Position numbers and translations under genes: made by a program
Notes under the pieces: model-generated
Database searches by the model: none
What the model saw: only the letters and a program-made list of their open reading frames with translations
Told to the model about the DNA's origin: nothing
Source of the DNA: Escherichia coli
GTDB lineage: Bacteria > Pseudomonadota > Gammaproteobacteria > Enterobacterales > Enterobacteriaceae
DNA length: 64,000 nucleotides
Direction: 5' to 3' (one strand)
Assembly (NCBI RefSeq): GCF_041886205.1
Contig: NZ_CP169029.1
Shown: positions 15,635 through 21,312 of the stretch, piece after piece
Layout of the letters: every line of letters begins with the position of its first letter
Numbering within the stretch: position 1 is the first letter of the stretch

Positions 15635-15702
15635 AATGGTTCGTCTTTTAGCCGTTTTATTCAGTATAGATTTGCGGCGGAATCTAACAGAAAGCAAGCA
15701 AA

Positions 15703-15945
15703 GAAAAAAGGCGACAGATTACTCTGTCGCCTTTTTTCCTGACTCATAACCCTTAACGGGTCTTACAATCCTTGCAGGCCGCCAACACACCCTGTTTTTC
15801 CTTTAGCCGGAACAATCCGTGTTGATTCCATTTCCGTTTAATTACGTCTCCGGACGTTTGTCTTCCTGACAATCCTCTGTCTTCGCCTCCTGGCGCTCCT
15901 GACCCTCATCCTGAGTCATTGTTCCTGTTAGCGTCCTCGCTCTAT
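15703..15945 (-). ncRNA. csrC: CsrC small RNA (CsrA-sequestering)
   Basis: reverse complement matches CsrC from ATAGAGCGAGGACGC.. to the terminator GGCGACAGAGTAATCTGTCGCCTTTTTT; multiple GGA motifs; between yihI and engB. Confidence 0.85.
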
Positions 15946-16973: not shown

Positions 16974-17082
16974 TAAAAAACGCCCCAGTCATTACTGACT
17001 GGGGCGGCTAAAATATTCAGCCAAATCCGATTACGTGAAGTAAAAGGTCTGAAAGATAGAACATCTTACCTCTGTACCCTAC
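16974..17082 (-). ncRNA. spf: Spot 42 small RNA
   Basis: reverse complement matches Spot 42 (GTAGGGTACAGAGGTAAGATGTTC...) through the terminator CCGCCCCAGTCAGTAATGACTGGGGCGTTTTTTA. Confidence 0.9.
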
Positions 17083-17229
17083 GCGACTAACTTTACTCTT
17101 TTTTGTTCAGTTCAGAAAGCACTTTTTGTAATTTTTTTTCAGTTGTTGCATAGGAATTTCTAATAGCCATCACAAAACGTGACAGCTTATGTTGCTTACT
17201 TACGAAAAAAGGGCATGTTCAGGCGAATC

Positions 17230-20016
17230 TTAGTGCGCCTGATCCCAGTTTTCGCCACTCCCCACTTCCACCAGCAACGGCACATCCAGACGGGTACAGT
17301 TTTCCATCAGTTGATGAATCTGCTTCGCGACGGCATCAACATCATCTTTATGAACTTCAAATACCAGTTCATCGTGTACCTGCATGATCATACGTACACG
17401 CGGTTGCTCAGCCTGTAACCACGCATCAACGGCAATCATCGCCCGTTTGATAATGTCGGCGGCGGTTCCCTGCATTGGCGCGTTAATGGCTGCACGTTCA
17501 GCCGCTGCACGACGAGCACCATTGCTGGATTTGATATCCGGCAGATACAGACGGCGTCCGTCCAGCGTTTCAACGTAGCCCTGCTCTTTCGCCTGAGCAC
17601 GGGTGCGTTCCATATACTCCAGCACGCCAGGGTAGCGTTCGAAGTAAAGGTCCATGTACTTCTGCGCTTCTTTACGTGGAATGTTCAATTGCCGCGCCAG
17701 ACCGAAAGCACTCATGCCATAAATCAGACCAAAGTTGATCGCTTTCGCGCTACGGCGTTGCTCGCTGGTGACGGTTTCCAGTGGCAAACCAAACACTTCT
17801 GCCGCCGTTGCCCGGTGGATATCTTTTCCTTCCGCGAATGCGGTCAGCAAGCCTTTGTCACGCGAAAGATGCGCCATAATGCGCAGTTCAATCTGCGAGT
17901 AGTCCGCTGAGACAATCACATAATCCTCTGGCGCAATAAACGCCTGGCGGATACGACGACCTTCTTCGTTACGCACCGGAATGTTTTGCAGGTTAGGATC
18001 GGTTGACGATAAACGTCCCGTTGCAGTTACTGCCTGGTGATAAGAGGTATGCACACGCCCGGTTTTCGGGTTGATCATCAGCGGCAGCTTGTCGGTGTAG
18101 GTCGATTTCAGCTTCGCCAGACCACGATACTCCAGAATCACTTTTGGCAACGGATAGTCCAGCGCCAGTTCTTCCAGTACCTCTTCCGACGTTGACGGCG
18201 CGCCACCCGGCGTTTTCTTCAGCGGTTTAATGCCCTGTTTTTCAAAGAGAATGGTTTGTAACTGCTTGGTGGAAGAAAGGTTAAATTCCTCACCTGCAAT
18301 TTCATGCGCTTTCTTTTCCAGCTCAGCCAGACGAAGGGTGAGCTCTTCAGAATGATTGTGCAGCACTTTCGGATCGATCTTCACACCGTTACGTTCAATG
18401 CGTGAAAGCACCGGCACCAGCGGCATTTCGATATTCTCGAAGACGTTCAACGGCCCTTTGTGTTTTTGCAGATCCGGCCACATTTTCAGATGCAACTGCA
18501 AGGTGACATCTGCATCTTCGGCGGCGTAACGTCCGGCTTCTTCGAGGGCAATCTGGTTAAAGGTCAGTTGATTTTTGCCTTTACCAGCAATCTCTTCAAA
18601 AGTGATGGTTTTGTGCTTCAACCAACGTTCCGCGAGGCTGTCCATATCGTGACGCCCGGCAACGCTATTGAGAATGTAGGACTCCAGCATGGTATCAAAC
18701 GCAATCCCACGCAGTTCAATGCCGTAGTTCGCCAGAATACCGCGATCGTATTTCAGGTTTTGCCCGACCTTCAGCGCCTTTTCATCTTCCAGCAGCGGTT
18801 TTAGCAACTCGAGTGCACGCTCGCGAGAGATTTGATCGGGCGCATCAAGATAATCATGAGCAACCGGAATATATGCCGCTACGCCTGGCTCGATAGCAAA
18901 AGAAAGCCCGACCAGGTTAGCAGAGATGTTATCAAGGCTGTCGGTTTCGGTATCAAATGCAAATACCGGCGCTTTTTCCAGCTTCGCAATCCACGCTTTC
19001 AGTGTTTCTTCATCAAGGATGGTGACGTAGTTGTCATAAGAAATCACCGTTGCCGTCACTTCTGGCGCTTCGTCTGCAACACTGGTTTCCTGCGGTCTGG
19101 CTGCGGGTTTCGCCCCTTTAGCCTGTAACCATTTGCCCGCTTCGACATCAGCAGTCCAGCGTTTGAACTCATACTTTTTGAACAGCCCCAACAACTCTTC
19201 CGCCGCCGGTTGCTGCACTTCCAGTTGTTCACAGGTCAGCTCCAGTTCAACGTCGGTTTTAATCGTCGCCAGCTGGTATGAGAGATAAGCAACTTCTTTG
19301 TTTTGCTCGAGCTTCGCTGCCATTGTTTTCGCGCCACGGAAGCTCAACCCAGCAATTTTTTCTGGCTCGGCATACAGCGTATCCAGTCCGCCAAGACCTT
19401 GCAGCAATGCCTGCGCGGTTTTTTCACCGACGCCCGGTACGCCAGGGATGTTATCGGAGGAGTCACCCATCAGCGCCAGGAAATCGATGATCAGTTCTGG
19501 CGGCACGCCGTACTTATTCACCACCTCTTCCGGTCCAAGGATGGTATTCGTCATGGTATTGATAAGCGTAATATTTGGCGTCACCAGCTGCGCCATATCT
19601 TTATCGCCAGTGCTGATCAGCACCGGATGCCCGGCTTTTTCGGCTTCGCGCGCCAGAGTACCGATAACGTCGTCCGCTTCTACGCTAGAAACCGCCAGCA
19701 GCGGCAGCCCCATCGCTTTAACCATCGCGTGCAAAGGTTCGATTTGTGCTCGCAGATCGTCCGGCATTGGCGGGCGATGTGATTTGTAATGTTCAAACAG
19801 TTCATCACGAAAGGTTTTTCCCTTGGCGTCAAAGACCACCGCTGCATGCGTCGGTTTATATTGCATGATCAGACTGCGCAGCATGTTGAGGACACCATAC
19901 ATCGCACCGGTCGGCTCGCCTGCGCTGTTAGTCAGCGGAGGAAACGCGTGATATGCGCGATAAAGATAAGATGAACCATCTACAAGGATAAGTGGATTTT
20001 GGGGGATCTGAACCAT
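17230..20016 (-). CDS. polA: DNA polymerase I
   Basis: 928-aa ORF, recognised PolA sequence. Confidence 0.97.
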
Positions 20017-20139
20017 AATGTCCGTGCCTGTTTATCAGATTATGGGTAAAGGATGCCACAGACAGGATGAAAACATGAGTTTTTCACCGCTTTTCGTGAA
20101 AATCTTTTGTAGATCTTCTGGATCGCTCGCAAATCGTCA

Positions 20140-20148
20140 TGTGGATAA
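20140..20148 (-). promoter_or_regulatory. DnaA box (TTATCCACA) in the polA upstream region; second near-match CTATCCACA at 20281..20289
   Basis: exact 9-mer consensus on the minus strand 124 bp upstream of the polA start. Confidence 0.5.
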
Positions 20149-20379
20149 CTTTGTGCATAAATTATTTACATCGCTTTTAATTTATTATCATGCTTTTTAC
20201 AGCATGATGTTTGTCTTTGTTTTTCATGCAGTTAAAAATAAATCCATCCCTAATAATTGAGATAATGGGATTTTTTCTAATGTGGATAGATATGAATTAT
20301 TTTTCTCCTTAAGGATCATCCGTTATTTGGGTCGTTTTCTGCTAAAATCTGCGCCTTGCGCTTCTTTAGCGCACTGTCT

Positions 20380-21312
20380 ATGGCTAACCTTTTGAATAAA
20401 TTCATTATGACGAGAATACTCGCTGCGATAACCCTTTTGCTGAGTATCGTATTGACCATTTTGGTCACTATTTTTTGTTCCGTCCCGATCATCATTGCCG
20501 GGATTGTAAAACTATTGCTTCCTGTGCCAGTCATTTGGCGAAAGGTTTCGCGTTTTTGTGATTTTATGATGTATTGCTGGTGTGAAGGTCTGGCGGTATT
20601 ACTGCATCTGAACCCACACCTGCAATGGGAAGTTCACGGGCTGGAAGGGTTAAGTAAGAAGAACTGGTATCTGCTTATTTGTAACCACCGTAGTTGGGCA
20701 GATATTGTCGTACTGTGCGTGCTGTTTCGTAAGCACATTCCGATGAATAAATATTTCCTCAAGCAGCAGCTGGCCTGGGTGCCATTTCTTGGCCTGGCGT
20801 GCTGGGCGCTGGATATGCCGTTTATGAAGCGTTATTCCCGCGCTTATTTATTACGTCATCCGGAGCGACGTGGTAAAGATGTTGAAACCACTCGGCGTTC
20901 TTGTGAAAAGTTTCGCCTGCATCCCACCACCATTGTCAATTTCGTTGAAGGCTCCCGTTTCACGCAAGAAAAACATCAGCAAACCCACTCCACTTTTCAA
21001 AACTTGTTGCCACCAAAGGCGGCAGGCATTGCGATGGCGCTAAATGTGCTGGGTAAACAATTCGATAAACTGCTTAATGTTACGCTGTGTTATCCGGACA
21101 ATAACCGTCAGCCGTTCTTCGATATGTTAAGCGGTAAACTGACGCGGATTGTCGTACATGTGGATTTACAGCCTATTGCCGATGAGTTACATGGCGACTA
21201 CATCAATGACAAAAGCTTTAAGCGCCATTTTCAGCAATGGCTGAACTCACTGTGGCAGGAAAAAGACCGACTTCTGACGTCTCTCATGTCATCACAGCGT
21301 CAGAATAAGTAA
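20380..21312 (+). CDS. yihG: membrane-anchored acyltransferase (PlsC/LPLAT family)
   Basis: 310-aa product from MANLLNKF; N-terminal transmembrane segment and H(x4)D-like motif (NHRSWAD). Confidence 0.85.

Follow-up and report, generated by a model that had tools for sequence, protein, structure and literature searches.

A DnaA double box and a distal box at conserved spacing form a probable DnaA-responsive control region upstream of polA in Escherichia coli

Introduction

The region considered here lies between the divergent genes polA and yihG in a 64,000-nucleotide stretch of the Escherichia coli chromosome (NCBI RefSeq assembly GCF_041886205.1, contig NZ_CP169029.1). This whole stretch is called the window below, and positions refer to it unless MG1655 is named. 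We propose that the polA-yihG spacer is a DnaA-responsive, probably looped, upstream activating module of polA, and we put the chance that this is correct at roughly three in four. The parts of this proposal are not equally firm. That the spacer is a DnaA-bound control region of polA is very likely; that a distal DnaA box belongs to it as a functional part is likely, if less so; and that the module would loop through a central bend is a tentative suggestion to which we give slightly less than an even chance. A double DnaA box forms one end of a module of ~160 bp, and a single box in the same orientation, at ~142 bp, forms the other.

Activation of transcription by DnaA has been described as poorly understood by the authors of a recent genome-wide study of DnaA binding (PMC11317965), and the arrangement described here offers a concrete architecture for it. 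The module spans three bacterial orders, in which its spacing has been held to ~1 bp while the intervening DNA was rewritten. The spacing-locked set of three boxes, the central island resembling an IHF site and the helical phasing of the boxes to a TGGCATnCT motif seem to be unreported in the searchable literature.

DnaA boxes in the polA-yihG spacer

The spacer extends over 363 bp (20017..20379) and has a GC content of 0.353, with values of 0.29-0.37 in 200-bp windows as compared with ~0.5 in the flanks. A preliminary description, made from the letters of the window alone, had given this length, had called the spacer strongly AT-rich and was correct in all of its coordinates. The surrounding DNA is not peculiar to the strain: the 601 bases that span the spacer (19900..20500) match E. 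coli chromosomes at 100%, and the same segment occurs at a coverage of at least 80% in 5421 of 5426 complete E. coli genomes. The polA gene lies ~120 kb from oriC.

DnaA boxes were identified with the 9-mer consensus TTATCCACA and its relaxed form TTWTNCACA. The proximal, high-affinity box (20140..20148, minus strand) is TTATCCACA itself, an exact R-type consensus with the plus-strand letters TGTGGATAA; it is the sole exact copy in the 64 kb and lies 132 nt upstream of the polA ATG. Next to it, across a 3-bp spacer and in the same orientation, is a partner box (20152..20160, minus strand), TTATGCACA, which has one mismatch and fits the relaxed consensus. The pair, TTATGCACA-aag-TTATCCACA, is a "double DnaA box", that is, two boxes of the same orientation 2 or 3 bp apart. 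The third, distal auxiliary box (20281..20289, minus strand) is CTATCCACA, with the plus-strand letters TGTGGATAG. It is a direct repeat of the proximal box at a spacing of 141 bp on its upstream side, and its one mismatch, at position 1, places it outside TTWTNCACA. The exact minus-strand box and the one-mismatch copy had both been named in the preliminary description and both hold, whereas the adjacent TTATGCACA, the functional partner of the proximal box, had been missed. In E. coli there is in addition an inverted 9-mer with two mismatches, TTATTTACA, 1 bp upstream of the partner box; as read from the alignment, it is degenerate in Citrobacter.

Boxes of this kind could be chance matches in AT-rich DNA, and the count for the window as a whole gives this idea some footing: by itself, one exact copy per 64 kb carries no significance (0.44 expected, with at least one in 38 of 100 shuffles). 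The spacer itself tells otherwise. One of its strands carries three boxes that differ from the consensus at no more than one position, and in 20,000 dinucleotide-preserving shuffles of the spacer the probability of three or more was 5e-5, that of at least one exact box 0.004. With conservation over three bacterial orders and published occupancy by DnaA (PMC11317965) also against it, an origin of the boxes by chance has a negligible probability.

Boxes with at most one mismatch are also frequent in the window at large, where 25 were counted against 12.5 expected and none of 100 shuffles reached 25. This enrichment agrees with the high density of DnaA boxes published for the region around oriC (PMC12371093). 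Low-affinity DnaA sites arrayed on the downstream side of the proximal box were considered as well and rejected: 11- and 12-bp periodicity was examined with no conserved match, and the sole match that turned up, AGATCTACA, is specific to E. coli and agrees at 6 of 9 positions.

Published occupancy and regulation by DnaA

That the polA promoter carries a DnaA box, and that DnaA occupies it, is already known. The preliminary description had called the box a known feature, which published chromatin immunoprecipitation with sequencing (ChIP-seq) and reviews bear out. In MG1655, ChIP-seq of DnaA in 2024 defined 16 bound regions, one of which is polA, with a peak centred at MG1655 4046831 and a signal 123-fold over control; the sequence listed there in Table 1 as the polA "double DnaA box" is tTTATGCACAaagTTATCCACAt (PMC11317965). 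It corresponds to 20139..20161 of the window (minus strand). In MG1655 the double box occupies 4046822..4046842, so that the peak centre falls inside it. Occupancy data of this type had been named beforehand as the check on the boxes, with a lack of DnaA there as the adverse outcome; DnaA is found on tTTATGCACAaagTTATCCACAt (PMC11317965).

The strength of the signal sets polA apart from the classical promoter sites. Among the 16 values it ranks sixth: purH (124) is slightly higher, the only others above it are the peaks of oriC, datA and DARS2, and dnaA, nrdA and mioC reach 5, 14 and 25, respectively (PMC11317965). The 9-mer of the distal box, CTATCCACA, is listed in the same study as a box of DARS2 (PMC11317965). 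With regard to function, reviews that cite Quinones et al. (1997) state that DnaA stimulates transcription of polA in stationary phase. The gene has also been placed in an oriC-proximal region of high DnaA-box density, and the same authors suggest that boxes in promoters may titrate DnaA as well (PMC12371093).

A detail of the published coordinates may be noted here. The footnote of Table 1 refers them to NC_000913.2, whereas the double boxes of polA, datA and purH map in NC_000913.3 within a few bp of the peak coordinates (PMC11317965). The footnote appears to name the wrong genome version. We take the start of polA to lie ~2 kb lower in NC_000913.2 than in NC_000913.3.

Conservation of the boxes and of their spacing

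The polA 5' regions of 80 gammaproteobacterial species were compared with that of E. coli (81 in all), each being scanned upstream of the start codon. An exact TTATCCACA lies at most 200 nt from the polA ATG in 47 of the 81. This proximal box is present in nearly all Enterobacterales, in Vibrionaceae and in many Alteromonadales (Shewanella, Pseudoalteromonas, Idiomarina, Rheinheimera, Alteromonas and others), and the scan found none in Pasteurellaceae, Pseudomonas, Halomonas, Marinomonas and Cellvibrionales. Every species with the proximal box has kept the partner, always across a 3-bp spacer and with 1-4 mismatches; the ACA end of the partner is invariable, and most species have CACA.

Both strands of 240 nt were scanned for further boxes, and a distal box was taken to be a TCCACA core or a match with at most one mismatch on the strand of the proximal box. 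By this definition it is present in 42 of the 47 species that have the proximal box, 127-148 bp upstream of the latter, and the 240 nt contain almost no further box-like matches on either strand. The spacing is 141-148 bp in 37 species, with a mode of 142 bp, and holds within 1 bp in Enterobacterales and Vibrio. There are four shorter spacings: those of 129, 131 and 132 bp fall short of 142 by about one helical turn, and the fourth is 127 bp. The helical phase of the distal box relative to the double box would seem to matter. While the internal spacing of the module is fixed, its distance to the polA ATG ranges from 92 to 185 nt across species.

Within the distal box, positions 4-9 (TCCACA) are invariant, and positions 1-3 appear as CTA, ATA, TTG, TTT, AAG, AAA or GTT. 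The commonest enterobacterial form, ATATCCACA, also occurs in the datA region, and several Alteromonadales have an exact TTATCCACA at this position. The division into an invariant and a variable part leaves room for the idea that some protein different from DnaA binds at TCCACA, whose likeness to a box would then be coincidental, and the ChIP-seq study called no separate peak there (PMC11317965). However, the six invariant positions coincide exactly with the 3' two-thirds of the DnaA consensus, on the strand of the proximal box, and the E. coli and the commonest enterobacterial forms are, as just described, found at DARS2 (PMC11317965) and datA. Taken together with the exact copies in Alteromonadales, this makes binding by another protein very improbable.

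Gene neighbours

Which of the two divergent genes does the distal box serve? The preliminary description had left this open by suggesting that the second copy might affect either promoter. In E. coli it is closer to yihG, 91-99 bp ahead of the ATG of that gene, and a TAAAAT hexamer (20343..20348), which reads as a -10-like sequence, would place it near -70; an operator of the divergent yihG promoter could look like this. The neighbours of polA in other species, assigned by tblastn with the E. coli neighbour genes, point elsewhere. A divergent yihG adjoins polA in Escherichia, Citrobacter, Enterobacter-like genera, Mangrovibacter and Budvicia; a co-directional dsbA does so in Pseudescherichia, Pantoea, Brenneria, Pectobacterium, Photorhabdus, Providencia, Rosenbergiella and Acerihabitans; and in Vibrio and Alteromonadales tblastn placed none of the E. 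coli neighbour genes near polA. The distal box is found in all three situations. In Pantoea, Brenneria, Pectobacterium, Photorhabdus, Providencia and Pseudescherichia, with dsbA present and yihG absent, it has the same strand and spacing, and Vibrio, Shewanella and other genera with unrelated neighbours keep it as well. Its orientation and a distance of 141-143 bp are preserved in Enterobacterales with a co-directional dsbA or yihF-like neighbour and in Vibrio.

Because the distal box is kept whatever the neighbouring gene, it is part of a module linked to polA and not to yihG. The polA side of the earlier suggestion is thus favoured and the yihG side is not; an operator of yihG is an improbable explanation of the box, and an additional effect on yihG in E. 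coli may nevertheless exist.

Between dsbA and polA, E. coli and E. albertii have both yihF and yihG. Citrobacter, Enterobacter and others have only yihG there, Superficieibacter has only a yihF-like gene, and in Pantoea, Brenneria, Photorhabdus and others no gene intervenes. Whichever of them intervene, the DnaA module always adjoins polA.

In the window, polA is an open reading frame (ORF) of 928 aa (17230..20016, minus strand) and yihG occupies 20380..21312 (plus strand); RefSeq annotation and the ORF list agree on both. One RefSeq genome annotates a 72-aa ORF (20316..20534, minus strand), which overlaps the start of yihG, as a hypothetical protein and gives yihG a later start, equivalent to 20437. 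This ORF is probably spurious, since the DNA around it shows no conservation of a coding kind. Rfam covariance models gave no match at E <= 1 inside 20017..20379. The only nearby matches that reached gathering scores are two small RNAs in their expected place downstream of polA, CsrC (15692..15945, minus strand; 278.7 bits) and Spot 42 (16974..17092, minus strand; 122.8 bits).

The inter-box spacer and a candidate IHF site

Between the double box and the distal box lies an AT-rich spacer (20161..20280) that is conserved in length and not in sequence. Its GC content is 0.20-0.40 across species. Sixteen species have their boxes exactly 142 bp apart; in these, the median ungapped identity outside the island described below is 0.31, as compared with 0.27 for shuffled sequences. 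The length of the inter-box DNA is under selection and its sequence is fully randomised: with identity near the shuffled level and length held to ~1 bp, the spacing must have been selected rather than simply inherited.

A single island breaks this pattern. In an alignment of Enterobacterales and in the column profile, TAAcnnAnTGAtttaAA is the sole conserved inter-box element, at +53..+70 from the start of the distal box, and it fits the IHF consensus when read as YAANNNNTTGATW. In E. coli the corresponding IHF-like site (20222..20234, plus strand; MG1655 4046748..4046760) is TTTCATGCAGTTA, with 2 mismatches to WATCAANNNNTTR. Exact matches to the IHF consensus between the boxes occur in 9 of 42 species as against 2% of shuffles, and by our count ~20 of 22 Enterobacterales sequences have an IHF-like match with at most 2 mismatches at +55/+56. 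Each clade keeps the site at a set position. The best IHF-like matches of Alteromonadales and most Vibrio are at +67..+72, 73-77 bp upstream of the proximal box, and in the opposite orientation to those of Enterobacterales. An IHF site is asymmetric and its bend centre lies just 5' of WATCAA. Given this geometry, the predicted bend centre would come close to the middle of the module in both orientations. The island may therefore be regarded as a candidate IHF site, as far as its sequence allows.

The spacer also contains a perfect 8-bp palindrome, ATCATGCT-N6-AGCATGAT (20187..20208), which scored as terminator-like on the plus strand. It was considered as a part of the module and set aside, being already disrupted in E. 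albertii.

The TGGCATnCT motif and the region downstream of the proximal box

A scan of 19900..20500 with the sigma-70 consensus returned no promoter at its thresholds. A candidate for the polA promoter emerged instead from the species comparison. In 43 species a TGGCATnCT motif precedes the polA ATG by 36-67 nt; the proximal box is exact in 42 of these and has one mismatch in the remaining one (Budvicia). Taxa of the 81-species comparison that lack the DnaA box all lack the motif as well. Over both strands, the background is ~2.6 copies in 64 kb. The E. coli copy is TGGCATCCT (20050..20058, minus strand), a candidate extended -10 element in which TGn is followed by CATCCT, with a predicted transcription start near 20043 (MG1655 4046939). 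Read as TGn plus CATnCT, the motif retains the critical bases, A (-11) and T (-7). Aliivibrio and Psychromonas have the DnaA box and no TGGCATnCT; TATAAA or TATAAT stands at the same place, and this replacement supports the -10 reading. On this basis we think it somewhat probable that TGGCATnCT is the -10 element of polA, of the extended type and with a hexamer that departs from the consensus. A C at position -8 and the subsequent TTA recall -10 regions of the sigma-S type. Readings of TGGCATCCT as part of a sigma-54, sigma-32 or sigma-E promoter were rejected by eye against the respective consensus sequences, as the -12 or -35 elements do not fit. A second promoter candidate, TTGCGA-N15-17, would go with transcription that begins beside the proximal box.

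The distances between the proximal box and TGGCATnCT fall into the ranges 47-52, 56-61, 69-72, 79-82 and 88-92 bp, with clusters at 49, 59-61, 71, 81 and 91 bp, which are steps of ~10.5 bp. With one value per lineage (n = 21) and periods from 7 to 16 bp scanned, the best period is 10.25-11 bp (R = 0.49), at an only moderate p of ~0.006. If TGGCATnCT is the -10 element, the centres of the proximal box would be near -60, -71, -82, -92 and -102, depending on the lineage.

GATC (Dam) sites are concentrated in the module. E. coli has two, 20112..20115 and 20121..20124, which are 9 bp apart and lie just downstream of the proximal box. The first is inside AGATCT (20111..20116), a hexamer of the ATP-DnaA-box type. 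Counted by ourselves in 22 Enterobacterales sequences, that of E. coli included, at least one GATC lies within ~45 nt downstream of the proximal box in 18 and at least two do in 14; the GATC cluster of Vibrio adjoins the distal box instead. Between the GATC pair and TGGCATCCT there is an inverted repeat (20073..20110) with 15-nt arms that are 80% complementary. As RNA it folds at about -7 kcal/mol (about -7.6 in the E. coli repeat), with z-scores of -0.7 to -2.7, and close relatives show some apparent compensatory changes, while in some species the fold is absent. RNAalifold did not recover it and the single-sequence folds are weak, and a conserved RNA hairpin was dropped from consideration.

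Proposed mechanism

The features described above can be combined into one proposed course of events. DnaA would bind cooperatively to the double box, as a pair. A bend at the centre of the module, introduced by IHF or a protein like it, would fold the AT-rich spacer, and DnaA at the distal box could then contact the pair and stabilise a small looped complex. Lying on one face of the helix, this complex could help RNA polymerase at a weak, non-consensus extended -10 element, in the geometry of a class-I-type upstream activator. The GATC sites may tie the module to Dam methylation and SeqA after passage of the replication fork.

Several observations weigh against this proposal. The ChIP-seq study reported a single peak at polA, although peaks only 137 bp apart at oriC were separated, and it reported no separate peak for the distal box at MG1655 4046693 (PMC11317965). 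This implies that, in E. coli and under the conditions of that experiment, the distal box is not an independent strong site. The E. coli copy of the IHF-like site is weak and degenerate, with its 2 mismatches. The -10 assignment and the class-I-type geometry are read from sequence, and the phasing behind the latter, once lineages are collapsed, has the moderate statistics given above; Providencia is out of phase, with 137 bp between box and motif, and the E. coli proximal box, near -101, would be far for direct contact with RNA polymerase. Finally, most proteins of the DnaA regulon stay at the wild-type level after deletion of datA, DARS1 and DARS2 (PolA is not given individually), which argues that any DnaA control of such promoters is weak or saturated in growing cells. 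At polA it may be saturated or conditional.

Comparison with known systems

The polA promoter box of Quinones et al. (1997) and the "double DnaA box" of the ChIP-seq study (PMC11317965) are the same locus and the same sequence, tTTATGCACAaagTTATCCACAt. In the searchable literature, accounts of polA deal with the proximal or the double box only; the distal box at a fixed 141-142 bp, the island (or any link of polA to IHF), conservation across orders and the phasing to TGGCATnCT are not mentioned there, and we found no earlier description of them.

With regard to activation, the nearest likeness is to class I activators, of which CRP binds at -61.5, -71.5, -82.5 and -92.5. If TGGCATnCT is the -10 element, the centres of the polA proximal box would similarly move in steps of one turn on one face of the helix. 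Unlike those cases, the activator at polA is DnaA, and both the transcription start and the contact with RNA polymerase are predicted.

DARS1 and DARS2 resemble the polA module in being clusters of DnaA boxes in promoter regions (uvrB and mutH), and DARS2 uses IHF and contains CTATCCACA. The core of a DARS reportedly needs oppositely oriented boxes (Fujimitsu, 2009), whereas all three conserved boxes at polA are on the same strand, which sets the locus apart from this class. At purH, where ChIP-seq gave 124-fold, the region upstream (MG1655 4207300..4208200) holds a two-mismatch box, TGATTCACA, 135 bp upstream of the double box and on the same strand. The spacer there is not AT-rich and has no IHF-like site, and on this evidence purH does not share the architecture.

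The closest parallel is datA. In MG1655 its double box, TTGTAAACA-gag-TTATCCACA (4392732..4392752), is followed downstream by an exact IHF site at 65 bp and by a box of the same orientation, TTATTCACA, at 162 bp; in the mechanism proposed for it, IHF mediates a loop that joins the DnaA bound at box 2 with that at box 3. The polA module likewise has same-orientation boxes that flank a single IHF-type site at a constrained spacing, 141 bp at polA and 162 bp at datA. Both loci have the same orientation of the IHF site relative to the boxes, both are proximal to oriC and both give a top-tier ChIP signal. The order of parts differs, being double box, IHF site and single box at datA as compared with single box, IHF site and double box at polA. 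Moreover, the IHF site is exact at datA and degenerate in E. coli polA, and the polA module is coupled to a promoter.

This likeness invites a different reading of the locus, namely that the module mainly controls DnaA, as a DnaA-IHF locus of the datA type that titrates DnaA or promotes hydrolysis of DnaA-ATP, and that it lies beside polA for positional reasons. The shared parts (double box, IHF site, same-orientation box and the common orientation of the IHF site) fit such a role, as do a ChIP signal of 123 that is well above those of dnaA (5), nrdA (14) and mioC (25), an internal spacing that stays constant whereas the ATG may be anywhere from 92 to 185 nt away, and the excess of boxes in the window (25 with at most one mismatch against 12.5 expected). 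Published hints of oriC-proximal box density and of titration by promoter boxes (PMC12371093) go in the same direction. Yet the parts are permuted relative to datA, the searchable literature ties no replication phenotype to the locus, and the co-occurrence of the boxes with the polA core-promoter motif and their helical phasing to it are hard to explain if polA is a bystander. We therefore consider control of DnaA as the main role to be unlikely, and prefer activation of polA; the two roles are not mutually exclusive.

A broader version of the proposal, which we hold to be doubtful at present, would see an ancient, self-contained DnaA-IHF module of distal box, central bend and double box, ~142 bp apart, in Enterobacterales, Vibrionales and Alteromonadales, forming a looped complex of the datA type that acts as a sensor or a sink of DnaA. 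If this were true, such a complex at polA would couple the synthesis of DNA polymerase I to the status of the initiator or would buffer DnaA, and the module would be an overlooked DnaA-control locus, conserved far more widely in these data than any locus with which it was compared. The parallel with datA raises the question of whether some of the strongest DnaA sites on the chromosome, such as polA and purH, might act in the same manner, as looped DnaA-IHF complexes.

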